Positions 3,942 to 61,201 of a stretch of 64,000 nucleotides of DNA are shown one piece after another. The DNA is taken from positions 255-64,254 of the forward strand of contig CAYZTN010000001.1 of the NCBI GenBank assembly GCA_964481385.1, written 5' to 3'. Under the pieces are notes generated by a model. The model saw only the letters and a list, made by a program, of their open reading frames with translations. It did no database searches and had not been told where the DNA came from. Each line of letters opens with the position of its first letter. The stretch's first letter is position 1. The DNA comes from an uncultured Clostridium sp. Its GTDB lineage: Bacteria > Bacillota > Clostridia > TANB77 > CAG-465. The position numbers and the translations under genes were made by a program.

Positions 3942-4148
3942 CTATAAAACATCTGCGATATAATTATACTCCATTTCATATAAATTTTGTATATTTGTAT
4001 AATATTTTTCGTGCATTTTCTTTAAATGTAATATATCTGTATAAGCAGAAGCAATATATACTAAAAAAACTACTGCAGTTACAATAATTGTAACTGTCGC
4101 TGACCCTTTTTTCATGTTATACTTTGAATTAAAATTATATACTCTCAT
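3942..4148 (-). CDS. Small pilin-like protein (prepilin-type N-terminus MKKG|SATVTIIV)
   Basis: The ORF-track start at 4157 is a GTG placed directly on the RBS. The ATG at 4146-4148 has AGGAGA 9 nt upstream. Leader MRVYNFNSKYNMKKG, then a 20-aa hydrophobic helix. No E at +5. Confidence 0.4.
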   Translation of the reverse strand: MRVYNFNSKYNMKKGSATVTIIVTAVVFLVYIASAYTDILHLKKMHEKYYTNIQNLYEMEYNYIADVL

Positions 4149-4153
4149 ACAGT

Positions 4154-4573
4154 TCACTCTCCTACGTATATAATGATTTTTCTTTCCATATTATGTGTAT
4201 ACCTTTTTAAGGTTACATCGATATCTACTAAGTTATTTTCTACATCACCTATACTAAAACTTGAAATGTTTTTGCATAACACACCATCATTCATTTTCAA
4301 CTCTTTTTTATCCGCATCGTACAAAAAAATATCGCCATTTGAAAACGTAATAGACTTTGTGCTATTAACAGTAACTGAACTACTTTCTAACGCACTCTTA
4401 TTTAAATAATACATAATCTTTTCATAATGTGTCATATCTTGAGCAATACCTTTATCAGCAAAAACTGTATCTGACAAATTATTTGAAATTACCAAAGCGA
4501 TACCCGTAAATGCTACAAGTAACATTATGTAGACTACCACAGACATCATTGTTAAACCTCTCTTCTTGCTCAT
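4154..4573 (-). CDS. Minor pilin-like protein (N-terminus KRG|LTMMSVVVYIMLLVAF)
   Basis: 139 aa. Basic leader, Gly, then about 20 hydrophobic residues and a periplasmic domain. Overlaps its neighbours by 4 nt (operon). Confidence 0.45.
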   Translation of the reverse strand: MSKKRGLTMMSVVVYIMLLVAFTGIALVISNNLSDTVFADKGIAQDMTHYEKIMYYLNKSALESSSVTVNSTKSITFSNGDIFLYDADKKELKMNDGVLCKNISSFSIGDVENNLVDIDVTLKRYTHNMERKIIIYVGE

Positions 4574-5433
4574 AAAGTCTCCTCCATCTTAAGTGCATCT
4601 AATGATACATTATATGTTTCGCCATTAACTAAATAGCTTACTGTCACATTTATATTCTTTGCATTATCTATTATTTCTTCGCTTCCTTTTAGCTTATCTG
4701 TAATTGTTACTGCATATGTGTAAGTTATATTGTCTAACTTTTCAGTTCCGCTGCTGTTTTCTAAACTAACATAGGCTTTCGCCTTTTGTACATTCATAAG
4801 ATTTAAACATAAACCCGTCGCATCAATTTTCCTTTTATATACAGATAAGTTGTTTGAATAATTTGCAATCGTGTACACCGCAACTAAAAAGAAAAACATG
4901 AATATCACTATAGCAACAACTATATCAACATTTAAACCGCCTGCTTTTTTATTTGCTTGTTCCTTTTTTTCTTTTCTATTCTTTTTGCTTTCTTCCTTAT
5001 CTTTTTTCCTTTTCTCAACAACTTTTTGTACTTCTTTCTTTTCTTCTTCAGTCATTTTAGCTTCCATTATATCAGAACCAATAACTAAAAATAAATAAAC
5101 AAAACATACAATAAGTACTAAAGCCTGCCATGAGATACCACAAATCATGAATATAAATAAAAATACAAAACCTGTAAATAATTCTATTAGCGGATACCTA
5201 ATGCTTATTTTTTGGCAACAATACTTGCACCTTCCAACAGTAGAAATATAGCTCAAAACTGGGAAACAATCGAAAAAGCCTAAACGATGTTTACACTTAG
5301 GACAATACGACCTAGTGTGAGTTATATCTTGTTTTCTTGGAATTCTATATATAGCAAGTGTAAAAAAGCTTCCAAATAACAACCCTACAACAAATACGAA
5401 AATTGCATATATCAAATAAATAGTCTCATTCAT
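4570..5433 (-). CDS. Atypical prepilin-peptidase-like membrane protein (DiS-P-DiS zinc-finger N-domain + lysine-rich insert)
   Basis: N-terminus GSFFTLAIYRIPR...CPKCKH...CKYCCQKISIRYPLIEL is the Peptidase_A24 N-terminal (PF06750-type) CxxC...CxxC domain. Then come TM helices and a 40-aa K/E-rich segment EEEKKEVQKVVEKRKKDKEESKKNRKEKKEQ. The canonical GGGDVK second-Asp motif is absent; GGLNVDI sits in its place. Confidence 0.6.
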   Translation of the reverse strand: MNETIYLIYAIFVFVVGLLFGSFFTLAIYRIPRKQDITHTRSYCPKCKHRLGFFDCFPVLSYISTVGRCKYCCQKISIRYPLIELFTGFVFLFIFMICGISWQALVLIVCFVYLFLVIGSDIMEAKMTEEEKKEVQKVVEKRKKDKEESKKNRKEKKEQANKKAGGLNVDIVVAIVIFMFFFLVAVYTIANYSNNLSVYKRKIDATGLCLNLMNVQKAKAYVSLENSSGTEKLDNITYTYAVTITDKLKGSEEIIDNAKNINVTVSYLVNGETYNVSLDALKMEETL

Positions 5434-5514
5434 ACCTTACCTCCACATATAAATACTTAGTTCAAAAAATCATTCTCAACTAAATATTTAATTTATTTAT
5501 AATATATAATACTT

Positions 5515-5547
5515 AGGACATATACATTATCTTCATGCATATGTCCT
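5515..5547 (-). terminator. Perfect 9-bp-stem hairpin immediately downstream of the candidate major pilin gene (possible attenuator/terminator)
   Basis: aggacatat-N15-atatgtcct. A stem-loop after the major pilin gene is common in pilus operons. On the minus strand it is followed by AU-rich sequence, not a clean U-run. Confidence 0.3.
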
Positions 5548-5582
5548 TTGTTTTCATTCGTATCAGATTATACAATTTTAAA

Positions 5583-5924
5583 TTAATCAGTTGCAACTGT
5601 AGGTCTTCCTGTATCTTCGTCGAAGGCTACAATTAATCCACTAACTTTGAAACCTTGATCTGACAATATTTTCTCATAATCCGCTTGTTTCATAATAGTT
5701 GTGCCATCTTCTTTATATGCTTTTCCATCTGTTCCTCTTGCAACAGCAGCAGCATACTCCATAGCAATAACATTACTTGCGTTTGCTCTATCTGCTTTTT
5801 TTACAGCACTATTAGCTTGTTCTATAACATTTGTGCTAGATAAGCTAACTATTATTGCACCTGCAAGAATCGCTAACACAATTATTGTTATTACCAATAC
5901 AATTAATGATATACCTTTTTTCAT
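5583..5924 (-). CDS. Pilin-like protein, candidate major pilin (MKKG|ISLIVLVITIIVLAILAGAIIV)
   Basis: 113 aa. Short basic leader plus Gly, a 22-aa hydrophobic alpha1-like helix, then a globular domain. Sits in the pilus operon between the pilMNO genes and the peptidase-like gene. Confidence 0.55.
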   Translation of the reverse strand: MKKGISLIVLVITIIVLAILAGAIIVSLSSTNVIEQANSAVKKADRANASNVIAMEYAAAVARGTDGKAYKEDGTTIMKQADYEKILSDQGFKVSGLIVAFDEDTGRPTVATD

Positions 5925-5991
5925 ACATAATTCCTCCTATTTTAAATTTATATTACATCACGCAAAAGGTTAATGCGTGCTATAACCCAAT

Positions 5992-6378
5992 CTACTTTCC
6001 GGTAATAGGTTTACTACTACCTGTACCACTTGTTGAGCCACTACCTGTAGCATCTGTTCCTATAATAGCACTAGGCTCATTATAAATTGTTACATCTCCT
6101 TTCGGAGTAAACGGATTTATATTTCCTGGTTCATATTGTCCTTTTACTTGCCCATCTCTTACCTGAGACGAGTTAGTCTCATGCATCTCCCAATTCTCCT
6201 CTTTTTGAGGATCATACTTAGTATCTTCATACGTAAAATCAGTTTTTTTCACCTTATCGTACGTAATCCCTGTAATATATGATTGGGATTGAGGTATCAA
6301 TATAAGCATAAGAACTAATGCTAGAGATACCAATACAACAACTATACTAATTAACGTAATCCATGCATTTTTACTCAT
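5992..6378 (-). CDS. Membrane-anchored protein with Gly/Ser/Thr-rich C-terminus (possible PilP-like pilus component)
   Basis: 128 aa. One N-terminal TM (ITLISIVVVLVSLALVLMLILI). C-terminal low-complexity GTDATGSGSTSGTGSS. Called only from its position inside the pilus operon. Confidence 0.3.
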   Translation of the reverse strand: MSKNAWITLISIVVVLVSLALVLMLILIPQSQSYITGITYDKVKKTDFTYEDTKYDPQKEENWEMHETNSSQVRDGQVKGQYEPGNINPFTPKGDVTIYNEPSAIIGTDATGSGSTSGTGSSKPITGK

Positions 6379-6396
6379 GTTAGTTCCTCCTATTCT

Positions 6397-6984
6397 TTAA
6401 AATAATACCTCCATATTAAGAACATCAAACGTAGCACTTACTTTATTGTCTCCGCTATATTCCATCAGCATATTGTCCAATTTAAATTTTAAATCGTTAT
6501 CACTTTCAACCTCAAATACAAAATTTGCTATATCTGAGTACCTTCCAACAAGGTTAATTTTAATAGTTCCATTCGCAGAAGCTTCGCCGCCTTGTCTTGG
6601 ATCTTTAATAGTTAGCGCTAAGCTATTACTATCTGCATATCCCCCCAACACAATCCACAACCAATCTATATAATAATGCTCTTCTCTAGTTGCTTCTTTT
6701 ATTGTGTTTAATTTTTCTTCACTTATACTACTATACTCATTTTTTGCTTTCTCATATGCTTTTTTCGCAGTTTCTAAATTTGAGTTTGCAATATCATATT
6801 GCTTTTTAGCGACATCCAACTCTATCGTAGCCGTTTCTAGTTCTACATCTTTAATCTTCATATCAGTGATAGACAATGTTTTAATCTTTCCTAAATCTAC
6901 CGTTTTCAAAGTAACATATGTAAGACCAGCTATAAGCAAAATTAATACCAAAGCTAAAGTCCCTGTTATTATATATTGCTTCAT
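6397..6984 (-). CDS. PilO-like inner-membrane pilus alignment protein
   Basis: 195 aa. N-terminal TM, a coiled-coil segment and a periplasmic domain. Located directly downstream of the pilMN fusion. Confidence 0.4.
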   Translation of the reverse strand: MKQYIITGTLALVLILLIAGLTYVTLKTVDLGKIKTLSITDMKIKDVELETATIELDVAKKQYDIANSNLETAKKAYEKAKNEYSSISEEKLNTIKEATREEHYYIDWLWIVLGGYADSNSLALTIKDPRQGGEASANGTIKINLVGRYSDIANFVFEVESDNDLKFKLDNMLMEYSGDNKVSATFDVLNMEVLF

Positions 6985-8627
6985 GGCAAATCACCACCTA
7001 TCGTTACTGTTATTACAGTATCATGTGTAACAGCTGTAGTTCTAACGCTAGAAGCAGCTAATACACCTTCTAATTTTAGCTGTGACACAAAATATCCTAA
7101 CTTAGCATAGGAATCTGATGTAGCAACTATAGTTACGTGTTTCGAAGAGTCTGACTTAATAGATTTTAGTGTCACACCATCAGGTATATATTTAGACACT
7201 TTTAACATAAATAACGCAACATTATATGTTGAATACTTTCCTATTTCGCCATTAGTTATCTTTCTTATAGTCTCATTTACATAACTTACATAATTGCTAT
7301 ATTTTTCTTTATTAGAATTAATATATGCTATATCAGAATTAACCAACAATGTACTGTCTGTAACTTTTGCCTTTTCCTCTAAAACATTTGATATCTGTTT
7401 ATCCATCTGAGCATTATATATACCAGTAAATACGGAATACAACAAAAGTAGAGTGAAGATTATTACATTTGCAAATATAAGTACAGACTTTATCTTTTCG
7501 ATATTTATATTACCAATAAACACATTTTCATTTCTATTTAACTTAGACTTTAATTTTTGTTTATCTTTAATTTCTCGAGCACCAACACTTTTTTGCTTAG
7601 TGGTTTTTGAAAATATGCTTCCAAATTTTTTATTCTGTCTCAAGAAATCCAGCTCTGTTCTTTCCATCATCAACGCTTCATACGCCAATGCAAAAGCTTC
7701 ATTCGCTTCAAATATCTCTGCTAAATTAATACTAGAATCTCTAGTATCTATAAAAGCCGGTTTAAGTTTCTCGGATGGTATATCAAAGTATTGCTCAAAT
7801 AACATTTCGCTATTTATAAACAAAGTTATCATTCCACTTAAATATATTTTATCCACGTTTACTTTTAGCTCATTAATTTTGTTTTGAATTCTATTTAATG
7901 CATCTTGCAACACCGGTTCAATTATCTGTTCTAGTTCAGGATTATTAGCATTACTATTATCAGAAAAAATATTTATAGTTTTACATGTATCATATGCTTT
8001 TTGATAAGAGCCTAATATTTCCGGGAAAGTATCTAATATTTTTCTCATTCCCAACTCCATATTTACTATATCTAACAATTTCCCGCCATTTACAAATATT
8101 AAATTAGTGTCTTCATTCATGTCTATTATCAAATAATTACTCTCTGATTTTGGAGCAATTTCATCCAATATATATGGTACAGGATACATAGACGTAACCG
8201 GAGAATTTGCATTGTCAAGATACTTGCTAACATCTGGTCTATCTTTGACAATTATATTAGCAGTATAATTGTCATGTGACACCAGAGAATCTAGCAATGT
8301 ATATTTATATATACAGCTTCTTTCACTCTTATCTTCATTACCAGTAAAATCAACCACTTCTAGGTCTATCAGGCTCTCTAAGTCATTTTTGCTTATTATT
8401 CTTAGTACTTCTGTTTTATGTATTTTATCGTTAACCGAATTTATGCACACAGGAACACCTTCACTGCCAGTTGCAGTGACAATGCTATTAATTACATCTG
8501 ATTTATTTCCTAGGTGAATTTTTGTCCCGTAAGTTACTGCTTTTATTCCAGATGAGTTGTCATCTTTTACTAATTTAGCATACTTTACGACTTTATCACC
8601 AATATAAATACCTAAACAGCTACTCAT
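6981..8627 (-). CDS. pilMN: PilM-PilN fusion protein (actin-like ATPase domain + TM + PilN-like periplasmic domain)
   Basis: 548 aa. N-terminus LGIYIGDKVVKYAKL resembles the PilM GxDIGxxxIK start. Central TM IKSVLIFANVIIFTLLLLYSVF. PilM-N fusions are known in Clostridia. It is the first gene of the operon. Confidence 0.6.
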   Translation of the reverse strand: MSSCLGIYIGDKVVKYAKLVKDDNSSGIKAVTYGTKIHLGNKSDVINSIVTATGSEGVPVCINSVNDKIHKTEVLRIISKNDLESLIDLEVVDFTGNEDKSERSCIYKYTLLDSLVSHDNYTANIIVKDRPDVSKYLDNANSPVTSMYPVPYILDEIAPKSESNYLIIDMNEDTNLIFVNGGKLLDIVNMELGMRKILDTFPEILGSYQKAYDTCKTINIFSDNSNANNPELEQIIEPVLQDALNRIQNKINELKVNVDKIYLSGMITLFINSEMLFEQYFDIPSEKLKPAFIDTRDSSINLAEIFEANEAFALAYEALMMERTELDFLRQNKKFGSIFSKTTKQKSVGAREIKDKQKLKSKLNRNENVFIGNINIEKIKSVLIFANVIIFTLLLLYSVFTGIYNAQMDKQISNVLEEKAKVTDSTLLVNSDIAYINSNKEKYSNYVSYVNETIRKITNGEIGKYSTYNVALFMLKVSKYIPDGVTLKSIKSDSSKHVTIVATSDSYAKLGYFVSQLKLEGVLAASSVRTTAVTHDTVITVTIGGDLP

Positions 8628-8691
8628 TTTTTCTCCTTATTCCATATAAATATTGCCATTATCCTTAGTACTTCAAATTCTATACTTCAAA

Positions 8692-8721
8692 TAATTTATC
8701 ACATTTTTTTACACAGGTCAA
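8692..8721 (-). promoter_or_regulatory. Candidate sigma-A promoter for the pilus operon (TTGACC-18-TAAATT)
   Basis: Read on the minus strand upstream of pilMN. RBS AAGGAGA precedes the ATG at 8627. Confidence 0.3.
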
Positions 8722-8811
8722 CAAATTTCTTGTGCTTAATATAAATGTATCAAAACTGTAATATTTTTGTAATATTTTGTGCGCTTTTTTCAAGATTATG
8801 AAAGAGGACCT

Positions 8812-8843
8812 ACAAAAAAGGACTTGCAAAAAGTCCTTTTTTA
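8812..8843. terminator. Bidirectional rho-independent terminator
   Basis: aaaaaAGGACTTgcaaaAAGTCCTtttttatt. An 8-bp stem flanked by an A-run and a T-run, immediately 3' of the asp23-like gene. Confidence 0.7.
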
Positions 8844-9302
8844 TTACTCATCAATTGAAGTCTTTTTTTCTTTATCAAAAGTAACACCCTGTACATTAAT
8901 ATTAACTGCTTTTACATTTAAGCCAGTCATGCTCTCGACTGAGCTCTTAACTGAATTTTGAATCGAAAAAGCAACATCAGGAATTTTAACTCCATATTTT
9001 ACTATTACATACAAATCAATTGTTACATCGTTACCTTCGAGCTCTATTTTTACTCCTTTTGTATATTTCTTGTTGTTTCCCAACATTTGGTTTATTCCAT
9101 CAACAAAACCCAAAGTCATACCTGAAACGCCTTCAACTTCAGCAGCAGCTAATCCAGCAATTATTCCAATTACTTCTTCTGAAATCGTGAGATTACTTGC
9201 AATTTCCACGCTAGCACCCATGCTTTCTGAAACTCCAACGATTTCATTATTTAACTCAACTTTATTCTTTTCTCCCATAAAATCAAATCCTTTCTTTTTC
9301 AC
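8844..9302 (-). CDS. Asp23/Gls24 family alkaline-shock protein
   Basis: 152 aa. VEGVSGMTLGF...VNINVQGV matches the Asp23/DUF322 family pattern. Confidence 0.8.
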   Translation of the reverse strand: MKKKGFDFMGEKNKVELNNEIVGVSESMGASVEIASNLTISEEVIGIIAGLAAAEVEGVSGMTLGFVDGINQMLGNNKKYTKGVKIELEGNDVTIDLYVIVKYGVKIPDVAFSIQNSVKSSVESMTGLNVKAVNINVQGVTFDKEKKTSIDE

Positions 9303-9372
9303 AAGTATAAAACTAGTATATCAAAACAAATTTAAAATTCAAGCTATTCATATAATTTCACACAAACAAAAC

Positions 9373-9834
9373 TCATTTTAACTCATCTGTCACCCTATAA
9401 TATATTTTATCGTTATATTTAAAACCTCTAACGTAATATAAAGTTCCATCATTAGACAAACCATAATAATCTGTTTCAGTATCTCCGCTACCAGTGGTTA
9501 CTTCATCATACCCTAACAAAGACACATCAATTACTGTCAATTCTAATCCAATAAGCGCTTCTCCGAATTTATCGCCAAATTGCAGTTCGTCAGCTTCATC
9601 GTCAGCCACCAACACTATTGTACTATCAACATTATTTTGTTTTTTTATAGGATATGTTTGATTATTATCGTAATACCTTCTAACGGCCGTTTCAACTAAC
9701 ATATAATCTGCTACAAATCTAGATTTTTCTGCATTTTTAAAATACTGTGTACTATTTATTACAACTATACTTGTTATTATACTAAATATTATCAATACAA
9801 TTCCTAATGTTACAAGAGATATTCCCTTTTTCAC
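9373..9834 (-). CDS. Pilin-like protein (MKKG|ISLVTLGIVLIIFSIITSIVV)
   Basis: The ORF track starts at a TTG at 9849. A GTG at 9832-9834 with GGAGGG 5 nt upstream gives MKKGISL, matching the paralogs. The following segment AVRRYYDNNQTYP resembles the pilin alpha1 C-terminal region. Confidence 0.5.
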   Translation of the reverse strand: MKKGISLVTLGIVLIIFSIITSIVVINSTQYFKNAEKSRFVADYMLVETAVRRYYDNNQTYPIKKQNNVDSTIVLVADDEADELQFGDKFGEALIGLELTVIDVSLLGYDEVTTGSGDTETDYYGLSNDGTLYYVRGFKYNDKIYYRVTDELK

Positions 9835-9855
9835 TTTTTCCCTCCACAAAATATA

Positions 9856-10947
9856 CTATTCAATGCTTACTGTTTTAACCAGGCTTGCATTGCCTGCATT
9901 GTCTACTACAACAAATTGCACTTCTGCAACCGCTAAATCTAATTTAATTTTGTAAGTTTCGCCTTTACTTCCGGCACTTATCAGTTGTGTAGCGGTATAA
10001 TCTATATCACTAACACCATAGTAACTGCATGCCACTCCGCTTTTATCGTCAGTTGCATCAGAAAATTTGACTATCACACAATCATTTTGCCTAACAATTA
10101 CAGGATCACCAATTGTTGGTGAAATTATGTCCAAATTTTCAACGTTAACACTAGTTTTAGCTATAACTTTTCCGTTTTCATCTTCTTTTTGAAAAATAAC
10201 ATCATTCATCTCAGACAGTTCACTAAACATTTCCGAATTTGTTGTTATCGTATCATAAGACAATTTTAATGTATATGGCAACGTTTCTGCAATTGGCGTC
10301 TTTACATCTCCAACTATATAATATAACGTCTCATCATCTTCTAATTTAGTATTAACAGTCAATTCCAAGCTATTAGTCCATTTGTCTGTACTTTTTAAAA
10401 CAGAAATTCTGCTTGTGATAAACACTGATTGTACATCTTCATTTGTATTTTTAGACAAATCTTCATCATTAATTTGGCTTATTTTACTTGTAAGTGAAAA
10501 ATATACAACGCCATCTATTTCCACACCTAAAGGATAGTATACAAAATTTCCATCTTCACTAATCACATAAAAATCCGCTTCATTATCATTGTTTCCATAA
10601 AAACCCTCGGTTTTTGCAATTTTGCTTAACTCTATCCTATAATACTTTGTTGCTATATCTTGATTAATTTCAAACTCCTCTTGTAACGCTTGAGAATTGA
10701 TAGAAATTCCGAGTAAGTCTGACTTTGTATAACTCACACTTTCATCAACAGGATATTTACCATTTTGTAAATAATATGATTGAGCTGCTTCATGTATCTC
10801 TTTCAGTTCAACTGCAAAAGCAACTTCTTTTGAATCATCTATCGAATCACTTAAAGTAATTACAATCGTAAATGCTAGTATACTCATTATAATTAATATG
10901 ACTGTTAATAATACTAACGAGATTCCTTTCTTTCCCATATTTCTCAC
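9856..10947 (-). CDS. Large pilin-like protein (MRNMGKKG|ISLVLLTVILIIMSIL), possible minor pilin or adhesin
   Basis: 363 aa. Same KKGISL N-terminus, then EAAQSYYLQNGKYP. Large C-terminal domain. Confidence 0.5.
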   Translation of the reverse strand: MRNMGKKGISLVLLTVILIIMSILAFTIVITLSDSIDDSKEVAFAVELKEIHEAAQSYYLQNGKYPVDESVSYTKSDLLGISINSQALQEEFEINQDIATKYYRIELSKIAKTEGFYGNNDNEADFYVISEDGNFVYYPLGVEIDGVVYFSLTSKISQINDEDLSKNTNEDVQSVFITSRISVLKSTDKWTNSLELTVNTKLEDDETLYYIVGDVKTPIAETLPYTLKLSYDTITTNSEMFSELSEMNDVIFQKEDENGKVIAKTSVNVENLDIISPTIGDPVIVRQNDCVIVKFSDATDDKSGVACSYYGVSDIDYTATQLISAGSKGETYKIKLDLAVAEVQFVVVDNAGNASLVKTVSIE

Positions 10948-11096
10948 CTTTTGTTATTTTATATCAAAAAACATAAATTATCAACGGTGAATTTAAAATT
11001 TACAAACTTCATCGCTTCAATATAATAAATATAAGATACACAATTATTAAAATTACTAGAGAAATTAAAAACTTACTTCTTTTATTCAAACCTAAT

Positions 11097-11924
11097 TCAC
11101 CTTCCGTTTTTTATATAATAATATGCAGTCACTATAATATACAACACTATATATATTGGAAACAAATATGACGCAATAAACCTAAAGCGCCCCATTGGGC
11201 TATACACTTTACCTAAAATATTTGAATAACAAACATAAATCAAAGCACACGCTAATACATTATAGGCACTAGCTTTTCTCGAAATAACAGCATTCAAATT
11301 ATATATCACATTTGCTGTTACTATAGTTCCTGCTAAAATTACAAAAGCAAAATTAAGTATTGTACTAAACTTTAGCTTATTTCTTTTCAAAACGAATTCC
11401 TTTACCCTAAACTTTGTAACCTTTTTTCGCAAGCTATTACTTAACTCAAAGCTTTGTAAATTCACTTTCTTTACATAAAGCTCTTCTTTTTTTAAACAAA
11501 CAAAATAATGAGAATATATATCTTCTTTTCTTAACATTTGAATATAGTTCATACAAGCCGCCATAAATTTAAACAATACATCTTTTATTTTTCTAGACTT
11601 TTTTTCGAAGTAAAATAAAGCATCAAATCCACAAGGGCTCTCATTTGCTAGTATAAAGTTATACAACACTATATCTATTTGATTTTTTGAAACACTTTCG
11701 CTTTTTGACAGCAATATATACTCTGACTTTGCATTCTTCATTTTATTTGTAATTTCTTTATGCAACAAACCTTTTGTACATATACATTCTAAATTATTTC
11801 TGATATACTGCATTTTTTTTAAATCTTCTTCTGATATATTTTTCTCATCATAACGCATCACTTGCTTTTTTTGAATTAAAAAAATGACCACTATAACGAG
11901 AATGAATATTGCTAAATAATTCAT
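11097..11924 (-). CDS. Hypothetical membrane protein
   Basis: 275 aa. N-terminal TM and multiple C-terminal TMs. No recognisable motif. Confidence 0.3.
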   Translation of the reverse strand: MNYLAIFILVIVVIFLIQKKQVMRYDEKNISEEDLKKMQYIRNNLECICTKGLLHKEITNKMKNAKSEYILLSKSESVSKNQIDIVLYNFILANESPCGFDALFYFEKKSRKIKDVLFKFMAACMNYIQMLRKEDIYSHYFVCLKKEELYVKKVNLQSFELSNSLRKKVTKFRVKEFVLKRNKLKFSTILNFAFVILAGTIVTANVIYNLNAVISRKASAYNVLACALIYVCYSNILGKVYSPMGRFRFIASYLFPIYIVLYIIVTAYYYIKNGR

Positions 11925-12008
11925 AAACTCCCCTTATACATGATCATATTATCACAAAAAAATATTAAATTAAATTTATATTACACCTCTATACATTTTT
12001 CGACATTA

Positions 12009-12791: not shown

Positions 12792-12792
12792 A

Positions 12793-14991: not shown

Positions 14992-15666
14992 ATGGTGAAA
15001 ATTGGTCTTTGTGATGACGATATAAATAGTCTTAAATACACTTCAAAAATTATTGAAGCGCAAATTATCGACATGAATCTTGATGCTGAAATAAGTGTAA
15101 TTACAAATGACCAAGAACTCATTAAACAAAAGATTATAAATCACGAAATAGATGTATTGTTCTTAGATATTGAATTTAAATCTGATGGCAAAAATGGCAT
15201 CGCATTCGCCAACGAATTAAGAACTTTAAACAAAGATTTTTCTCTCATATTCGTAACGGCATTTTTTGAATATTCAATGCTCGCATATCAGTGTAAAACA
15301 TTTGGTTATGTGTTAAAACCAGTAACCGTGCAATCTATTGCACCTATTATGCTTAGATTGCAATCTGAGTTTTTCCAAGAACCAAATAATTTTATACAAT
15401 TAAACAAATCAGAATCTATAAGAGCTAAGGATATTCTTTTTATTGAAAGAAATAAATCTAAAACAAAAGTATATACAGCTTGCGATACCTTTGAGACCAA
15501 TTATTCTCTAAACAATATGCAGGAATTTTTGCCAAAAGATTTCGTAAGAGTGCACCGTTCTTATATTGTTAATCAGAACAATATACAAGGAATTAACAAG
15601 AACGAAAAAGTAATTTTGTTTGAAAATAAACTTAGCTGTCCACTTGGGCAGCTTAAATCATTTTAA
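14992..15666 (+). CDS. LytTR-family response regulator (AgrA-like)
   Basis: 224 aa. Receiver domain (DVLFLDIEF) and C-terminal LytTR DNA-binding domain (FVRVHRSYIVN). Confidence 0.85.
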   Translation: MVKIGLCDDDINSLKYTSKIIEAQIIDMNLDAEISVITNDQELIKQKIINHEIDVLFLDIEFKSDGKNGIAFANELRTLNKDFSLIFVTAFFEYSMLAYQCKTFGYVLKPVTVQSIAPIMLRLQSEFFQEPNNFIQLNKSESIRAKDILFIERNKSKTKVYTACDTFETNYSLNNMQEFLPKDFVRVHRSYIVNQNNIQGINKNEKVILFENKLSCPLGQLKSF

Positions 15667-15683
15667 GGAGGAAACATACTACT

Positions 15684-17012
15684 ATGGAAATACTACATAC
15701 AACTTTTTATTACGTTGCAATATATATCGAAGCTGTTACAATTGCATATATGTTGCGTGCACTATCTTGTATAGTAACAAGAACCTTTGATACAAAAAAA
15801 TACAAAGAAGGCTTTTTCCTTAGCTTAATAATTTTCGTAATTCATGTAACAACAAATTACTTCATAGAACTTACATGGTTACGTTCCCTCATTAGTATTA
15901 TTGTATTTTCACTTGCAACCAAATTAATATACAAGATAAAACTCATACCTGCATTGCTTTCAACCATAATTGTTATGACCGCGTTTGCTTTATTTGAACT
16001 ATTAACAGTAGTAACGATCAAAAGTTTAGGCTTCGAACCTCAAAATATAAAAGCAAATGATATGTATAATGTACTTATTGTAATAATAATGTCATTAACT
16101 TGCTTTGTATTAACATATTTCTTATTTAAAATATATGTTAAAAAAGTATTTAATGTACATCAAGAAAACAAACTCGGAAAATACATTGTTCCACAATGTG
16201 TCGCGCTTATTATTTGCCTTATACCTTCCATGGCATTACTTATAAAAAACGATTTTGATTATTCTAATACAATAATAATGGCAAATATCATTCAGCTATG
16301 CGTTATATCTAGTGTAAGTATATGGAGTATTAGAAATTCAATAAAACAAAAAGAAACCGAAATGCAACTTGAAAACACAATTATACACAATCAAACATTA
16401 ACAAAAGTAAATGAAGGCGTTAGGGGTTTTAAACACGATATGGGTAATATCGTCCAAGCAATTTTAGGATATATAGCACTGAATGACACAGAAGGCGCAA
16501 AAGCATTCTGTCAAAATTTGGTGATTGGCTTTAATGATATAAATGTATTATCAATTCTATCTCCGAAAGTTATAAACGATCCTGCAATATACGGGGTTGT
16601 AGTAAACAAAATTTTAGTTGCAAGAGAAAAGAATATGAAACTTACATTAGATGTTGCAGCCGACGTAACAAATATAAACTTCCCAAAGTTTGAACTTTCG
16701 AGAATTTTAGGAATTCTGTTAGATAATGCTATTGAAGCTGGCATAAAAACCGAACCAAAAGAACTCATTTTAACAATTCATACATCACCAGATAACTTAT
16801 ACGATGAAATTATTATATCAAATTCCATACTAAGTCCAGACATACCACTAAACAAAATATTTACTAAAGATTATTCTTCAAAAGAAAAACCATCTGGTTT
16901 TGGGTTATATGAGGTAAATAATATTTTCAACAAATACACTCAAGGAATACTATCCACATCTATAGACAAAGAAAAATTACTATTTACACAAAGAATTAAA
17001 ATATTTAAATAG
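15684..17012 (+). CDS. AgrC/ComD-like membrane sensor histidine kinase (HPK10 family)
   Basis: 442 aa. Six or seven N-terminal TMs, then FKHDMGN (H-box) and LLDNAIEAG...GFGLYEV (GHKL ATPase). Follows the regulator by 18 nt. Confidence 0.75.
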   Translation: MEILHTTFYYVAIYIEAVTIAYMLRALSCIVTRTFDTKKYKEGFFLSLIIFVIHVTTNYFIELTWLRSLISIIVFSLATKLIYKIKLIPALLSTIIVMTAFALFELLTVVTIKSLGFEPQNIKANDMYNVLIVIIMSLTCFVLTYFLFKIYVKKVFNVHQENKLGKYIVPQCVALIICLIPSMALLIKNDFDYSNTIIMANIIQLCVISSVSIWSIRNSIKQKETEMQLENTIIHNQTLTKVNEGVRGFKHDMGNIVQAILGYIALNDTEGAKAFCQNLVIGFNDINVLSILSPKVINDPAIYGVVVNKILVAREKNMKLTLDVAADVTNINFPKFELSRILGILLDNAIEAGIKTEPKELILTIHTSPDNLYDEIIISNSILSPDIPLNKIFTKDYSSKEKPSGFGLYEVNNIFNKYTQGILSTSIDKEKLLFTQRIKIFK

Positions 17013-21909: not shown

Positions 21910-23973
21910 CTATTTTATGTAAAGCGCTGGACGAAAAACATAATAAGCTCTCACTTTATTCGCAGGCTGTTCAAGTCGAGATGATGCAGGAGAGTTCGCA
22001 CCATTTCGTCCTACATCACCACCTCGTATAACACGGTTCTCCGAAGTATATATCTCCATTGTCCACTCCCAGACATTACCAGCTAAATCATATATATTCT
22101 TTGCTTTCCAAGCTTCATTTTTCCCTGTTGTATAATCCATATTTGAACTTCCACTACCAGTAAAAGCAGTTCCTTGTGAATTACTGTAGTTTCCCCAATT
22201 GCGCGAATCTTCTATGCTAGTTTCCGCATCAGATACAAAATTCATTATAGCATCCCACTGTACTCCATAACATAATGTTGATACCACAGATTTATGATTT
22301 TTGTACATATTCTGTGACAAATATACTGCGCCTTTTGTACCTTTTTCTGCCATTGACTCTCCCCAACTAACATAGTTATATACATATACATTCTTTTTGC
22401 TTACTACTGTGTGAGCTTCTGTTTCCCCGGTTCTTGGCTTAGTTGCCGTAGCATCTCCAGCCTCAAAACGTGCTATATAGAACCCTTTATATTTTCTTAC
22501 TGATGCGCACATTTTATTATATTCTTCTATTTCCCATTCACTTGACTCATATGGCTCTTTAAAATTATCATCTAATTTACCCGTCATTTTGTATATCTTA
22601 GAACCACTATAAGTCTCTGTTGCTATTCCTCTTACAAATTTAGTATAATCTTCTACCGGCACCCATACAAACTGGTTACCTATACATATGTCGTCCTCGC
22701 CAACGCCTCTATTTGCATCTTCTTGATTATCTGAAATAACCAACCCTGTACTTTTTAAGCCACCAACATAATAGAAGCCCTCTGGTACCATGCTTGTATT
22801 TATACTTTTTTTACATATTATTTCAATATTACTTGTTACATTATCTATATTGACTATGTCGGTTTCTTTGTTATATGCTGATTTTGTTATATCTAAATTA
22901 TTCATTATGACTGAAACAGACTCAAACACATAATCGTCGCTCAAGTTAAGCTTTGTTTCATAACTTTTTCCGTATTGTATATTCATAGCAACGTTAGAAG
23001 CAGTTGCTCCATCAAGGTCGTATGTTATGCTATACACATTTGCTGTTGCACTAGCTGTAATTATTACATCTCCTGTTACGCTTAATATATTGATCTCTCT
23101 TGTTGCTTCATTGTATACAGTAGCTGTTACATCTACCCCTGCCATTGTTACTTCTACGCTTGTTAACGTGTGACCTATTTTTGCCGTAAGTGTTGTTGTG
23201 TAACTTGTCCCCCATTTTAATGTATATGCTGTATTTGAACTTACTACTTCTGTTAAGCTTGGAGTTATTGTATATGTATTTGCTTCTGTTGTTGCTGTTA
23301 TTATTACATCGTCTGTTACTTTGTCTATTGTTATTGTTTTATTTGAGTCGTTATATGCTAAATCTGTTATATTTACTCCACCCATTACTACTATTACTTT
23401 TTGTAATGTATATCCTGCATCTACGGTTAATGTTGCTGTATATCTTGAATCATTTGCTATTGTTGTGGCCACGTTGTTTGTTGTACAATGAACCAATCTG
23501 TTTCTTATTTTTATCTCATCTGGTATCATTCCTAAACTTTCTATTATTTCTAGTTCACTTTCGTTTTCTGTTATATAAACCAGTTTTCCTTTTATTATTC
23601 TTAATCCTTCTTTATATTTATCTGGCACACTACCAAATATATCTAAATACGCGGCATCCTTGTATGTCATATTAAGCTTCGTTTCATCAAATGCTCTGTC
23701 TTGTAATATTCTGTTCGCTAAATATATGTCGTATATTTGACTGTATGTAGACATATTTAGCTTAAATACTGTCTTTTGAGTTTCACTTATCATATTTGTA
23801 GTACTTAAACTTATTACTACTGTTGTAGCAAGTATACTTAAAACAAGTATTGTTATTACAAGTACTACGATAGTTATTCCGTTTTTTCTATTTACGTTTT
23901 GTGGAACAAATAAATCAAACTTTCTATTGCTTGTGGGAATACTATTTAGAAGGCTTTTTTGCCCCCCCCCCAT
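21910..23973 (-). CDS. Large pilin-like protein: prepilin-type N-terminus + 3 tandem ~75-aa Thr-rich repeats + C-terminal FGE-sulfatase (SUMF1/DUF323) lectin-fold domain
   Basis: N-terminus ...RKNG|ITIVVLVITILVLSILATTVVISL. Repeats (YT..L....GYTL..V.V.M.GV..T...YN...) at aa ~175-400. C-terminus carries GNVWEWT, RVIRGG, YVSWGE, LCYGVQWDAIMNF, the FGE-domain hallmarks. Confidence 0.6.
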   Translation of the reverse strand: MGGGQKSLLNSIPTSNRKFDLFVPQNVNRKNGITIVVLVITILVLSILATTVVISLSTTNMISETQKTVFKLNMSTYSQIYDIYLANRILQDRAFDETKLNMTYKDAAYLDIFGSVPDKYKEGLRIIKGKLVYITENESELEIIESLGMIPDEIKIRNRLVHCTTNNVATTIANDSRYTATLTVDAGYTLQKVIVVMGGVNITDLAYNDSNKTITIDKVTDDVIITATTEANTYTITPSLTEVVSSNTAYTLKWGTSYTTTLTAKIGHTLTSVEVTMAGVDVTATVYNEATREINILSVTGDVIITASATANVYSITYDLDGATASNVAMNIQYGKSYETKLNLSDDYVFESVSVIMNNLDITKSAYNKETDIVNIDNVTSNIEIICKKSINTSMVPEGFYYVGGLKSTGLVISDNQEDANRGVGEDDICIGNQFVWVPVEDYTKFVRGIATETYSGSKIYKMTGKLDDNFKEPYESSEWEIEEYNKMCASVRKYKGFYIARFEAGDATATKPRTGETEAHTVVSKKNVYVYNYVSWGESMAEKGTKGAVYLSQNMYKNHKSVVSTLCYGVQWDAIMNFVSDAETSIEDSRNWGNYSNSQGTAFTGSGSSNMDYTTGKNEAWKAKNIYDLAGNVWEWTMEIYTSENRVIRGGDVGRNGANSPASSRLEQPANKVRAYYVFRPALYIK
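22780..23470 (-). repeat. Three tandem ~225-bp coding repeats inside the FGE-pilin gene
   Basis: Visible in the DNA and in the protein (TYTITPSLTEVVSSNTAYTLKWGTSYTTTLTAKIGHTLTSVEVTMAGVDVTATVYN and its variants). Confidence 0.6.
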
Positions 23974-24037: not shown

Positions 24038-24460
24038 TTATCTATGATATATAACTCCATCATATTCTATACCTTTTAAGTAATACACATTGTTTGTATT
24101 TTCACAAATCACAAACACATCGCCATCGTTTACTGTTCCTCTACCTATATCCACAGTTGTATCTAACTTTTTTAAATCTACTACCATAAGCATATTATCA
24201 GTATCACCATTATATGCTAGTTCTGCACTAAAATTAGCATCCAAAGTATTTTTACCAACCACTTCCCCTGTTACAGGTAACGTTTTTTTTGTAGTTATAT
24301 ATTCTAAAGTTAAATCAGAAACTTTATCCACCTTACCTTTAAACGTCTCATAATTTGCTCTAGAAATACTTTTTACCCCAACCACACTTACTGTACTTAT
24401 TACAATAATCATTACGCTTACAACTACAATCAATAATGAAATCGTTATTCCTCTTTTCAT
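24038..24460 (-). CDS. Pilin-like protein (MKRG|ITISLLIVVVSVMIIVISTV)
   Basis: 140 aa. Same KRGIT/KKGIS N-terminal architecture. Directly upstream of the FGE-pilin. Confidence 0.45.
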   Translation of the reverse strand: MKRGITISLLIVVVSVMIIVISTVSVVGVKSISRANYETFKGKVDKVSDLTLEYITTKKTLPVTGEVVGKNTLDANFSAELAYNGDTDNMLMVVDLKKLDTTVDIGRGTVNDGDVFVICENTNNVYYLKGIEYDGVIYHR

Positions 24461-38920: not shown

Positions 38921-38989
38921 CATTAAATAAACACTTTGCATAAAATATATAGAATTAAGTTTTAAACATATATATATAAGGAGGCGTTT

Positions 38990-40054
38990 ATGAATAATTG
39001 TTTTAACCCTTGCTGTCCACCTAAACCATGTGTATTAGTTGGGCCTCAAGGTATTCAAGGTTGCCAAGGCATTCCCGGACCTATAGGTCCTACTGGCCCA
39101 CAAGGTGTTCAAGGTATTCAAGGAATGCAAGGACCATGCGGACCAACAGGTGCAACAGGTGCTACTGGAATAACCGGTCCAACAGGAGCTACTGGAGCTA
39201 CTGGACCAACTGGAGAAACTGAAACCATAACTATCGCAAATACTGTTACAGGCGAGCCCGGTACAGAAGCAGCAGTAAACGAAAGAAAAGTAGGAAATGA
39301 ACACATATTGGAATTTGTAATACCACGTGGAACTGACGGAACTAGTGTGCAAATATTAGGCAGCTACCCTAGTTTACAAGAATTAGAAGAAAACGAGCCA
39401 ATTGGCCAAAAAGGAGACGCATATATAATAGATAAAGACTTATACGTATGGTCAGATAACGACAACAGATGGGTTAATGCAGGCGAAATAAAAGGACCTC
39501 AAGGAGAACCTGGAGAAAAGGGAGACCAAGGAGAACAGGGCATTCCTGGGCCTACACTAATTAGAAATGCATATCTTCTAACCTACAATGACGGGACATC
39601 TGAAGATGGAGTTCCTGTACCTACAAAAACTAAACTACCTATTGACAGAACCGAAATTAATATAGGAAATATTATAACATTAGATCCAAACGAAGAAACA
39701 GTTAAGTTTAATCTTATTGGACATTACAAAGTAACTTTTGTAGTCTCAGCTTATTCACAAAAGACAGATACAGATTTTGTGCCAGAAAAAGACTTTGTAT
39801 CGCTTGGTTTTAGGCAAGTAGGCACAGATAATATATATATTGGAGCAAGTAGTTGGAATTATGACGAAATTGCTATACAAGTAACTGGTCAAGGAATATT
39901 AGCAATTAATGATACTTCTCAGCTATATGAATTAGTAAATCTAGGACCAGAAACTATATATCTGCATTCACCAGATTTAAAGTATATTGATTCTAATTCT
40001 TACTTTACTAATCCACTTGTAAATATTTTAATTGAATATTTAGGTAGAGAATAA
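38990..40054 (+). CDS. Collagen-like (G-X-Y) triple-helix repeat protein, BclA-like exosporium/surface glycoprotein candidate
   Basis: 354 aa. Cys-rich N-terminus [14 protein letters not shown], about 25 GXY triplets ([14 protein letters not shown]...[13 protein letters not shown]), an interruption, more GXY ([20 protein letters not shown]), and a ~170-aa beta-rich C-terminal domain. Locally GC-rich. Confidence 0.85.
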
Positions 40055-52167: not shown

Positions 52168-52178
52168 TGCGTCTTTTT

Positions 52179-53412: not shown

Positions 53413-53453
53413 CAGTGTCATTTGAAAACGTCCCAAATGGCACTGATTAATTA
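53413..53453. repeat. Palindromic repeat, copy 5 (CAGTGTCATTTG-aaaacgtccc-AAATGGCACTG + ATTAATTA), inverted orientation
   Basis: The loop is the reverse complement of GGGACGTTTT. It abuts the polC stop codon. Confidence 0.8.
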
Positions 53454-57854: not shown

Positions 57855-57948
57855 ATTTACCCCCACATAGAAATTAAAAACCCAAAGCACACGTAATATT
57901 TGTACATTTTGGATTTTTAATTTTTCTTTTGTTTTTCTTATTATTTAG

Positions 57949-59205: not shown

Positions 59206-59237
59206 AACTCATCTCGACCTTTCTTAAACTTAATTTA

Positions 59238-60050
59238 TTATATGTATAATTTTATAAAAATATATACTATTGGTGCAACAAACATTAAACTATCAAAACG
59301 ATCTAATATTCCACCATGTCCTGGCATAATCTTGCCAGAGTCTTTAATTTTACAATATCTTTTAATTGCAGATTCTGTTAAATCTCCAAATTGACCCGCT
59401 ACTGCTGCAACAAGTGCAACAAATATCCAATAAAAGATATTTACATTTATATTAAATGCGTATCTTCCAATAAGTGCTAATATCATAAATGCAATTAGCA
59501 CTCCAATTATTCCGCCAATAGATCCTTCAACTGTTTTATTCGGGCTTATATCTGGTGCAAGTTTTGTCTTTCCTATTTTAGAACCCACCAAAAATGCACA
59601 CGTGTCGCTTATAAACGCACCGCAGAACACAAACAATATGTAGAATCTACCATAAGGCAGGGCTAATATTAACTTAATAAATGATAAAGTAAATGGTATG
59701 TATAGTATTCCAAGTATTGTTATAGCAATATCTTTCATGCTTCTTTTTACATTTGATAACGTTATATAAGCAAACGAACCTATCAAAACTAAAGGGAGCA
59801 GTATTTTAATCATCATTATCCTGTATGCCTCAGGCATAAGGCCACCTGTTAAAATTATACAAAGGCAACCAAGATAAGATATCCAAGATATTGGTTTACA
59901 ACCAATTCCTCTAAAAGCTCTTAGATATTCAAACATCGCTATAACAGAAATTGCAACTACTGTTATTGTGTCAAACCATCTATTGTCTATAACAAGTACT
60001 GCAACCCAAAGAAGTACAAACACTACCGATGATACTATCCTTTTTTTCAT
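59238..60050 (-). CDS. cdsA: Phosphatidate cytidylyltransferase
   Basis: 270 aa polytopic protein. C-terminal signature SGKIMPGHGGILDRFDS. Confidence 0.9.
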   Translation of the reverse strand: MKKRIVSSVVFVLLWVAVLVIDNRWFDTITVVAISVIAMFEYLRAFRGIGCKPISWISYLGCLCIILTGGLMPEAYRIMMIKILLPLVLIGSFAYITLSNVKRSMKDIAITILGILYIPFTLSFIKLILALPYGRFYILFVFCGAFISDTCAFLVGSKIGKTKLAPDISPNKTVEGSIGGIIGVLIAFMILALIGRYAFNINVNIFYWIFVALVAAVAGQFGDLTESAIKRYCKIKDSGKIMPGHGGILDRFDSLMFVAPIVYIFIKLYI

Positions 60051-60053
60051 AAT

Positions 60054-60602
60054 TTATACTTCCATTATTTCCTTTTCTTTTTCAGCAACTTTAGTTGATA
60101 CCAAATCAACGTATTTATCCGTTAGCTTTTGAATCTTTTCTTCCTCGCTACGGCGTTCATCTTCGCTCATTTCTCCATCTTTTTCAAGTTTTTTTGCTGT
60201 ATCCATAGCGTCTCTTCTAATATTTCTTATTGTAACTTTAACATTTTCTCCAAGCTCTCTGATATCTTTTGCAAGTTCTTTACGTCTTGCTTCAGTTAAC
60301 TCAGGAAACATCAAACGAATTCCCGATGCATCTTGAAGTGGGTTTATACCGATATCTGCTTTAGTTATTGCCTTAGCAATTTCAGGTATAAGATTTCTAT
60401 CCCAAGGTGTAATTAAAATTTGTCTTGGCTCCGGTACAGAAACTGAAGCTAATTGATTTACTGGAGTAACCGCTCCATAATATTCTACTTTAACCTTATT
60501 TAATATTTGTGGGTTTGCACGTCCTGCACGAATATTTCCAAGCTCCTCTTCTAAGTATTCTATTTTCTCTTTCATTTTAATTTCAAAGTCATTTAAATCC
60601 AT
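60054..60602 (-). CDS. frr: Ribosome recycling factor
   Basis: 182 aa. Typical RRF sequence (LNKVKVEYYG...RNIRRDA). Confidence 0.95.
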   Translation of the reverse strand: MDLNDFEIKMKEKIEYLEEELGNIRAGRANPQILNKVKVEYYGAVTPVNQLASVSVPEPRQILITPWDRNLIPEIAKAITKADIGINPLQDASGIRLMFPELTEARRKELAKDIRELGENVKVTIRNIRRDAMDTAKKLEKDGEMSEDERRSEEEKIQKLTDKYVDLVSTKVAEKEKEIMEV

Positions 60603-60646
60603 ATATTTTTCTCCTCCTAAACACTTAATAATTATACTATATTTAC

Positions 60647-60683
60647 AGAAAAAAGCAAGTCTAAACTAAAGTTTGACTCGCTT
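60647..60683 (-). terminator. Rho-independent terminator after the isolated pilin gene
   Basis: GCAAGTC-N13-GACTCGC (one mismatch) followed by a U-run on the minus strand. Confidence 0.4.
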
Positions 60684-60721
60684 ACTTTAAATAACACATA
60701 AAATCACATTTTCTGTTTGAC

Positions 60722-61201
60722 TTACTTGCGTACAGTCTCTACATCCAACGCAAAATATATATCCTCACCTGCTTTGAATCCTGCTATATAATATACACAC
60801 GTCCCCATGTCGTTTATATACAATACATCGCTTTCTTGCGTTATATCATACACCGCTTTTTGCACATTTAATTTTTCTATGTCTAATGCATAAAACTTGC
60901 CTGTATCGTCACCATTTTTAGTGATTTGTGCAGATAACGCTTGACTTTTATCTGTTGTAAGATTTGCTTTAGTCAGAAGCTGTGTTTTGGTCAAAGCCGT
61001 TGCTCCCGTCTTCACTGGGAGTATGCCACGTGTCGCATAATACTCAACTGCGGCATCTTGTATCCTTGCCATATTTGTTTTAAAATTTCCTTCTTTTGAT
61101 ATATCTATTGCATCCTTAGCAGAAAACACAGTTATGCCCGCTAGTATAGATAAAATAATCATTATTATTACAAGTATCATAAGAGAAATTCCTTTTTTCA
61201 T
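60722..61201 (-). CDS. Pilin-like protein (MKKG|ISLMILVIIMIILSILAGITVF) inserted between tsf and frr
   Basis: 159 aa. Same N-terminal family. The segment after the helix, QDAAVEYYATRGILP, parallels the other paralogs. Confidence 0.5.
   Translation of the reverse strand: MKKGISLMILVIIMIILSILAGITVFSAKDAIDISKEGNFKTNMARIQDAAVEYYATRGILPVKTGATALTKTQLLTKANLTTDKSQALSAQITKNGDDTGKFYALDIEKLNVQKAVYDITQESDVLYINDMGTCVYYIAGFKAGEDIYFALDVETVRK

Follow-up and report, generated by a model that had tools for sequence, protein, structure and literature searches.

Predicted type IV pilins without Glu5 and a pilD-like gene without a peptidase domain in uncultured Clostridia

Introduction

Bacterial type IV pilins and pseudopilins are regarded as having a nearly invariant glutamate at position +5 (Glu5 or E5). 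In models of pilus assembly, this residue forms a salt bridge with the N-terminal amine that accounts for both subunit docking and charge neutralisation (PMC10191384). The pilins described from monoderm bacteria carry Glu5 within canonical class III signal peptides and are processed by a bifunctional PilD (PMC6916266). Archaellins and archaeal type IV pilins often lack Glu5, and the N-terminal part of their first helix (alpha1N) is fully hydrophobic (PMC4471445). The glycine at position -1 is the single residue that prepilin peptidases strictly require (PMC4471445). PilD combines methylase and peptidase domains, and the known exceptions lack the methylase domain, not the peptidase domain; TadV is one such peptidase (PMC10191384). 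Peptidases that are unlinked to the pilus genes have precedents in MSH and Tad loci (PMC6668835). Here, we describe a stretch of 64,000 nucleotides (the window) from an uncultured Clostridium sp. (assembly GCA_964481385.1, contig CAYZTN010000001.1). It encodes eight pilin-like open reading frames (ORFs) without Glu5, PilB-, PilT- and PilC-type machine proteins, and a pilD-like protein in which the peptidase domain is missing and a pilin module is present.

Results

Eight pilin-like ORFs lack an acidic residue at position +5

We scanned the window in six frames for [KRN]-G followed by at least 20 hydrophobic residues in 22, and found all eight pilin-like sequences at ORF N-termini. Each ORF listed in the initial annotation was present, on the minus strand and at or very near the coordinates first given, and each begins with a short basic leader ending in Gly(-1), followed by a segment in which at least 20 of 22 residues are hydrophobic and which corresponds to alpha1N. 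The initial annotation had reported that none of these proteins carries E at +5, and this observation held: neither E nor D occupies that position in any of the eight (0/8), and both residues are also absent from the first 22 positions after the Gly in 8/8 ORFs. Position +1 is Ile in six ORFs, Leu in one and Ser in one, with Phe or Met in none. The alpha1N segments of the window pilins also lack the G14/P22 helix-breaking pair. Alternative starts were considered as a way to recover an E at +5 and were rejected, because the revised starts give none. A ninth pilin-like module in the window, formed by residues 166-287 of the pilD-like ORF described below, has Asp at +5.

The probable major pilin has 113 residues (5583-5924; MKKG|ISLIV, where the bar marks the predicted cleavage site, or more fully MKKG|ISLIVLVITIIVLAILAGAIIV) and lacks E5, F1 and P22. 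The 139-residue minor pilin-like ORF (4154-4573; MSKKRG|LTMMS) has a class III-like N-terminus, and its start overlaps the stop codon of the pilD-like ORF. Orthologs of the 139-residue protein are found in all related loci with K, G and T(+2) invariant, and no match to Pfam or to PDB sequences was obtained, profile search included. The start of the small 57-residue ORF (3942-4115; MKKG|SATVT) had initially been placed at 4148, which is incorrect: the ATG is at 4115, and the mechanically called ORF extends to a GTG at 4157. This protein is kept in 13 loci as a 54-residue tail after the Gly.

Head-family pilins of 153 residues (9373-9834; (V)KKG|ISLVT), 140 residues (24038-24460; MKRG|ITISL) and 159 residues (60722-61201; MKKG|ISLMI) are accompanied by two longer, modular pilins. 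The 363-residue protein (9856-10947; MGKKG|ISLVL) joins a pilin head to a C-terminal cargo domain resembling immunoglobulin (Ig) or OmpL47 domains, and the 687-residue protein (21910-23973; ...RKNG|ITIVV) combines repeats of Ig-like segments with an FGE-sulfatase-like domain at its C-terminus. If the first ATG of the 687-residue ORF is used, its leader has 31 residues. The 153-residue protein matched the NCBIfam GspG model below threshold (E 1.5e-3) and has orthologs in related loci. The 363-residue protein matched GspG at E 3.6e-5 and an OmpL47-type barrel at E 6e-5; its orthologs range from 340 to 712 residues and carry varied cargo. The match of the 687-residue protein to PF03781 (E 4.5e-4) was below the cut-off.

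A YY..G.YP segment following the hydrophobic stretch had been ascribed to every copy. We found it clearly in the ORFs starting at 60722, 9373 and 9856 and weakly in the one at 24038, and it is absent from the 113-, 57- and 139-residue ORFs. The four ORFs that have the segment also share a C-terminal head of the form D.Y...(E/D)...VYY..G...D..Y, and the head family can be summarised by the pattern YY-G-(Y/L)P ... VYY-G.

The 159-residue pilin gene lies between tsf and frr, within an rpsB-tsf-frr-cdsA-rseP cluster and at the usual position of pyrH, as does its counterpart in another locus (L096, 2822-3301); neither pyrH nor uppS is present in the cluster. This location suggests strong constitutive expression. 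A protein 59% identical to the 159-residue pilin (P0008) carries a C-terminal type I dockerin, through which a pilus subunit could dock to cohesin scaffolds, or the reverse. The FGE-sulfatase-like domain recurs behind E5-less pilin N-termini at 37-57% identity (loci L024, L028, L034, L036, L041 and L043). Because it recurs in many metagenome loci, this domain appears to be a favoured cargo of the E5-less pilin family.

The ORFs are related to canonical pilins

We searched the eight ORFs with hidden Markov models (HMMs) from Pfam and NCBIfam, and no model marked them as unrelated signal-anchored proteins. The N_methyl models PF07963 and TIGR02532 had no match at E<=1 in any of the eight, and the pilin matches that were obtained, to GspG and ComGC, were all sub-threshold (E 4e-5 to 0.09). 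A family profile was built from 24 members, comprising the four head-sharing window paralogs and their homologs, and was searched against all PDB sequences. The 13 best matches were all pilins, with E values from 1e-8 to 2e-3, and included Geopilin (1e-8), GspG (3e-5), Neisseria PilE (7e-5), Streptococcus sanguinis PilE1 (7e-5) and TcpA (1.5e-4). The alignment begins at the leader and places KKG|ITLVV over KKG|FTLIE with the cleavage site in register, and homology to the canonical pilins spans the N-terminal 60 residues. Because the alignment is in register, the aliphatic residue at +5 is the positional equivalent of Glu5.

The 113-residue pilin aligned with the head family over its first 65 residues (hhalign probability 98.6%, E 1e-15). 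An AlphaFold2 model of the 159-residue paralog, with a predicted local distance difference test score (pLDDT) of 83, suggests a pilin-type lollipop shape, with a 56-residue N-terminal helix (residues 3-58) carrying an alpha/beta head. In structure searches, pilins ranked first among multi-element matches, though weakly. Together, these comparisons indicate that the eight ORFs are genuine, divergent relatives of type IV pilins.

E5-less pilins form a large family

The initial annotation had proposed that similar pilins be sought in other Clostridia. Word-indexed homolog searches returned few relatives. HMMER, run exhaustively against 1.84 billion cluster representatives (50% identity), identified 5,995 clusters at E<=1e-3, 890 of them at E<=1e-10, and the pilin domain was N-terminal in every match listed. 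Among the best 148 of the 5,995, a recognisable [KRSNQ]G| site of the [IV][ST]L type was present in 147. These 147 sequences have mainly Ile (104) or Val (31) at +1 and Ser (91) or Thr (42) at +2. Their +5 residues are Val (57), Ile (28), Ser (25), Ala (16) and Thr (13) for the most part, and E or D occurs in none. Family members have a median length of about 400 residues and a maximum of 1,955. The cargo of 10 of the 86 long members includes Laminin_G_3, a ConA-like lectin domain, and Flg_new, BspA-type leucine-rich repeats (LRR_5), DUF285, Big_2 and dockerin domains were also found; N_methyl matched 0 of these 86.

The search in other Clostridia recovered the full gene set, with E5-less N-termini and intact ORFs, in 18 further loci of uncultured gut Clostridia at 42-76% identity. 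The operon is syntenic and intact in 12 loci from species-level metagenome-assembled genomes (MAGs) and in further metagenome loci. In the window and the 18 loci there are 71 N-terminal pilin signals, and none has an acidic +5 residue, whereas the pilin module fused to the pilD-like protein is acidic at +5 in 19 of 19. As a control, one metagenome locus that was found by N-terminal similarity is a canonical system, encoding a full-length PilD alongside G|FTLIE pilins. At species level, the nearest genomes are MAGs labelled "Clostridia bacterium" or "Clostridium sp.", uncultured and derived from the gut of humans, water buffalo and sheep. We place the eight ORFs in a large family that has so far not been modelled and that is found in low-GC Clostridia, likewise uncultured, of gut and rumen.

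Genes of the family frequently lie apart from pil genes, and the window shows this at 21.9-24.5 kb and 60.7 kb. We considered that most members, chiefly the scattered cargo-bearing ones, could be surface proteins that use a pilin-derived signal-anchor and are not substrates of the Pil machine, with which the few in-operon proteins alone would interact. This view draws on the genes at sites without pil genes, on cargo as large as 1,955 residues, on the missing E5 and on the pilin models that stay below threshold. We nevertheless consider it unlikely. The scattered paralogs have the same [KR]G|[IV][ST]L motif and the same alpha1 as the major pilin, together with a pilin-like head, and a plain anchor would need neither an invariant Gly nor Ser/Thr at +2. 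Scattering itself has parallels, in that canonical systems also disperse minor and modular pilin genes.

The pilD-like gene has lost its peptidase domain and encodes a GspI-like module

One gene that the initial annotation missed changes the picture, because it encodes a PilD homolog without a peptidase and with a pilin module that is acidic at +5. The pilD-like ORF (4570-5433, minus strand) encodes 287 residues, with an A24_N_bact Zn-finger domain at 15-96 (PF06750, IPR010627; E 8e-29), three transmembrane (TM) helices and a GspI-like pilin module. The Zn-finger domain and the three TM helices are followed by a Lys/Glu-rich helix, then by a disordered linker with the site KKAG|G (G165), and finally by the module (residues 166-287, nucleotides 4570-4938), which has Asp at +5. 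The Peptidase_A24 model PF01478 had no match in this ORF even at E<=1, and the match to the canonical PilD HMM covers only positions 8-118 of 270. Neither a canonical G|FTLIE pilin nor a full pilD is present elsewhere in the window.

The same architecture is found in relatives. The 120 best homologs (42-100% identity, mostly 265-307 residues) all match PF06750 and never PF01478, and nearly all of them align with most of the query; some carry the NCBI name "prepilin peptidase". Truncation through an assembly artefact was ruled out, because at least 120 homologs have this organisation. In an alignment of 19 sequences, the Zn-finger residues C44, C47, C69 and C72 are invariant, as are K163 and G165 of a K-x-G site after the Lys/Glu-rich linker. 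The alignment contains no GxGD motif, and no Asp is invariant besides D36 and D55 of the N-domain. The sites preceding the fused modules read KKAG|GLNVD, KKxG|ALSSE or KKAG|AINxD, with D or E at +5 in 19/19 loci, and a more distant clade has G|VFLIE.

Only one TM helix follows the linker. AlphaFold2 (pLDDT 77) modelled three TM helices with a Zn loop and a cytoplasmic helix, disorder exactly at the KKxG site, and then a helix of 50 residues that packs against an antiparallel sheet of four strands. The module as modelled matches the GspI fold, with alpha1 and a small antiparallel sheet. It is not free-standing, in that 165 residues of PilD N-domain precede it. Searching PDB sequences with a profile of the fusion family gave nothing useful.

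The loss of the peptidase domain could mean that the pilins are never cleaved. In every locus the sole pilD homolog is without the peptidase domain and, beyond the N-domain, without any conserved Asp, and the A24 domain is absent from about 700 kb of family-associated sequence, one canonical locus excepted. MKK leaders are also so short that their retention would add three residues only. If the peptidase had been lost genome-wide, the Pil machine might build a short, membrane-rooted pseudopilus or piston, or the uncleaved fusion might serve as a nucleus or as an anchor fixed in the membrane, its acidic +5 residue pairing with a neighbouring subunit. We give this explanation only a small chance. 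The presence of Gly(-1) in 147 of 148 representatives and the invariance of K163 and G165 are hard to explain without a Gly-specific peptidase, and the core of a filament could not bury the two or three Lys charges that an uncleaved leader would keep. In other systems the peptidase gene is often unlinked, and the sequence sampled is a small share of each genome.

A conserved two-hairpin element follows the probable major pilin gene

The 113-residue pilin gene lies between the pilO-like and pilD-like genes. Its orthologs in 11 loci are almost invariant over their first 30 residues, MKKGISLIVLVITIIV(L/M)(A/I)I(L/I)AGAIIISL, and have hypervariable heads. Some relatives have four tandem copies of the gene. 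The 113-residue protein is probably the major subunit, because its N-terminus is near-invariant, its head is hypervariable, its gene occurs in tandem copies and a hairpin follows its stop codon; these traits are typical of major pilins.

Between the stop codon of this gene and the pilD-like gene (5434-5582, minus strand) lies a conserved element with two predicted hairpins (minimum free energy -39.9 kcal/mol, z -5.3). We compared the equivalent intergenic regions of loci L003-L014 and L020. Across 11 loci the element has 31 consensus pairs, five of which show compensatory changes. The first hairpin (GGACATATGCAT / ATGTATATGTCC) is near-invariant in sequence and is preceded by CTAATACG. The second is immediately upstream of the ribosome-binding site and contains the five compensated pairs. 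Rfam gave only a sub-threshold match and no family, and a scan for promoter and terminator consensus sequences did not exceed shuffled expectation. The element may serve in attenuation, termination or processing and so set how much pilin is made relative to the machinery.

The conservation of this region bears on whether the locus could be what is left of a decaying, non-functional type IV pilus operon that has lost E5 and the PilD peptidase by drift. Such decay could account for the disappearance of two features that are both thought to be essential, Glu5 and the peptidase domain, but we regard it as very improbable. At least 19 loci, diverged to 42% identity, keep all ORFs intact and in synteny, with invariant motifs, and neither many frameshifts among orthologs nor a dN/dS near 1 over the operon was seen. 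The intergenic RNA structure is conserved, and the family has thousands of members. A DUF2207 gene elsewhere in the window is visibly broken, whereas the pil genes are not. The initial annotation had argued for a functional, divergent type IV filament class and against decay, and that argument is now supported by homology, by the pil gene context, by the conserved loci and by the breadth of the family.

Machine genes of the operon

The pilin genes are accompanied by genes for PilB-, PilT- and PilC-type proteins, all on the minus strand. The PilC/GspF-type platform protein (1-1182, its 3' end lying beyond the window) matched T2SSF at E 6e-27 and GspF and PilC models at E 1e-45 to 1e-51. The PilT-type retraction ATPase (1185-2279) matched TIGR01420 (pilT_fam) at E 4e-82. 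The PilB-type extension ATPase (2292-3932) matched T2SSE at E 9e-96 and has an MshEN-like N-terminus (E 7e-5); its best NCBIfam match was to type IV-A PilB (E 8e-115), below the equivalog cut-off. All three proteins can be called divergent, because each falls below the NCBIfam equivalog cut-offs. They are encoded together and score best against models of bacterial type IVa pili (T4aP) and type II secretion systems, and FlaI models gave E values of 1e-10 to 1e-17 versus 1e-82 to 1e-115 for PilT and PilB. Residues 12-64 of PilB match an MshE-type motif that binds cyclic di-GMP (E 2e-7, below the cut-off), which hints at control of pilus extension by this nucleotide.

Three further genes of the operon are also on the minus strand. 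A 548-residue protein (6981-8627) may be a PilM/PilN-like fusion: it had a sub-threshold match to the PilN Pfam model (E 7.5e-4), its ORF occupies the same position in all loci and its topology fits, and a search of PDB sequences, profile included, gave no match. A bitopic protein of 195 residues (6397-6984) is tentatively called PilO-like from its position; it has orthologs in 20 loci, and Pfam and NCBIfam scans found no family. A conserved bitopic membrane protein of 128 residues (5992-6378) has orthologs in 18 loci and no family match.

Other genes in the window

The window has a G+C content of about 32% and a strongly negative GC skew, and its minus strand holds nearly all genes. It also encodes Spo0A, YqfC/YqfD-like sporulation proteins, MutS/MutL, ValS, PolC and rpsB-tsf-frr. 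These features mark the source as a Firmicute with low G+C content from an endospore-forming lineage.

An Asp23-family gene (8844-9302, minus strand) lies between the modular pilin genes and pilM and is kept at 72-92% identity in loci L003-L014; a gene of the same family also adjoins pilin genes at an unrelated locus (L019, 10823-11272). Upstream of the modular pilin genes, 11097-11924 (minus strand) encodes a polytopic membrane protein of 275 residues, which is kept at that position in six related loci at 25-56% identity and has a weak match to DUF3021 only. At a distance of 4 kb from the pilin cluster, the other strand carries an Agr-like pair (14992-17012, plus strand): a response regulator of the LytTR type and a GHKL histidine kinase whose N-terminus is polytopic.

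The DUF2207 membrane-protein gene (30610-32443, minus strand) is split into three consecutive ORFs; one covers the N-domain, and the other two cover the beginning and the end of the C-domain. This makes it a frameshifted pseudogene, unless the assembly is in error. On the plus strand, 37832-40054 encodes a BclA-like protein with collagen repeats (GxT/GPx) next to a GT2/TPR glycosyltransferase. These are the sole sizeable plus-strand genes of that region and coincide with a local shift in GC skew; the arrangement resembles an exosporium glycoprotein module.

Discussion

The interpretation we favour, and hold to be somewhat better than evenly supported, is that the locus encodes a functional, divergent T4aP-type system with E5-less pilins and an unlinked peptidase. 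The class III signal of the family retains the basic leader, Gly(-1), Ser/Thr(+2) and a hydrophobic alpha1N, with Ile or Val in place of Phe1 and a small or aliphatic residue where Glu5 would be. The PilB, PilT, PilC and PilM/N/O-like machine would polymerise these pilins, and the head-family paralogs would be minor pilins or modular ones, presenting lectin-like, Ig-like, LRR, dockerin or FGE-like domains as cargo of adhesin type. Without Glu5, the filament core could not use the salt bridge to the N-terminal amine and would presumably depend on purely hydrophobic packing, as in archaeal filaments.

Maturation of the pilins is the second part of this proposal. Because no peptidase was found in the window or in the loci of the E5-less type that we searched, the case for cleavage comes from the conserved Gly(-1), and the near-invariance of this residue, in the fusion as well as in the free pilins, makes an A24-type prepilin peptidase the most likely processing enzyme. 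This peptidase would be encoded outside the locus, in a split PilD arrangement. The pilD relic would then consist of the Zn-finger (methylase) domain only, serving in effect as a 165-residue membrane-embedded leader for a GspI-like minor pilin. The retained N-domain may still act as an N-methylase, or it may be a membrane tether only. After cleavage, the GspI-like module would probably join the priming (tip) complex. For the E5-less pilins, both cleavage and filament formation are inferred from sequence here.

Several observations weigh against this interpretation. Glu5 mutants of characterised bacterial pilins cannot form homopolymeric pili (PMC4471445), and bacterial assembly without Glu5 has no precedent. 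None of the curated pilin models in Pfam and NCBIfam reached threshold for the eight ORFs, and the profile of the major pilin alone had no significant match to solved pilins among PDB sequences. Using an HMM built from three canonical PilDs, we found no peptidase domain in the 64-kb window or within 10 kb on either side of the operon in 12 genomes; among 74 metagenome loci, in which each genome is sampled in small part, a peptidase was present only in the canonical locus (L076). The assignments of PilM, PilN and PilO are weak. The failure of Glu5 mutants to homopolymerise is the main ground for caution and for interest alike.

A wider claim would be that these loci represent a whole lineage of bacterial type IV pili that works without the Glu5 salt bridge and has a split PilD, whose Zn-finger methylase domain has become a very large leader in the membrane for the sole E5-bearing pilin, the GspI-like priming pilin; in its strongest form, these genomes would have no A24 peptidase, and maturation or assembly would proceed in a way that has no parallel among bacterial type IV filaments. 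We put this forward tentatively, as a possibility that we think somewhat unlikely.

A natural E5-less family on a PilB/PilT/PilC machine offers a test of assembly models and a bridge to archaeal filaments. The fusion of the PilD N-domain to GspI separates the two activities of PilD in nature, and thus provides a handle on the role of pilin N-methylation. Thousands of such proteins have been missed by PF07963, by TIGR02532 and by PilFind-type patterns that expect E5. Because these models miss the pilins and the pilD-like genes are misannotated, counts of adhesin-bearing pili in the abundant, uncultured Clostridia of gut and rumen are likely to be too low. Our full-text literature searches turned up no account of bacterial pilin families without E5, of PilD N-domains that stand alone or are fused to a pilin, or of pilins fused to a dockerin.

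The closest described systems are the T4aP of monoderm Firmicutes such as Clostridium perfringens, Clostridioides difficile and S. sanguinis. These systems and the one described here have a short basic leader, Gly(-1), Ser/Thr at +2 and a hydrophobic alpha1N in common, and both have modular pilins with lectin-like cargo (PMC6916266, PMC8179133, PMC9934059). The 363- and 687-residue ORFs likewise resemble the modular pilins PilB and PilC of S. sanguinis, in which another domain is grafted onto a pilin module (PMC8179133, PMC9934059). In contrast to the monoderm T4aP, no free pilin here has E5 or F1, and the pilD homolog lacks the peptidase and is fused to a pilin module. Archaeal filaments resemble the window pilins in that Glu5 is often missing and alpha1N is fully hydrophobic. 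They differ from this system, which has a PilB, PilT and PilC of bacterial type, with PilT present, and a strict Gly(-1), in a host that encodes Spo0A.

In known type II secretion and type IV pilus systems, which have GspI/EpsI/XcpV among their core minor (pseudo)pilins, the only pilin without E5 is the tip subunit, GspK/PilX. The situation here is inverted, with only the GspI-like module keeping the acidic residue, and this module is carried on a 165-residue PilD N-domain with three TM helices instead of a short leader. TadV/FlaK and the MSH loci that lack a peptidase provide precedents for separated PilD activities and for a distant peptidase (PMC10191384, PMC6668835). The known reduced peptidases keep the peptidase and lose the N-domain, whereas the family described here does the reverse (PMC10191384). 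Taken together, these comparisons describe a system that is homologous to T4aP and works like them, without two of their defining features, the Glu5 of the pilins and a bifunctional PilD.

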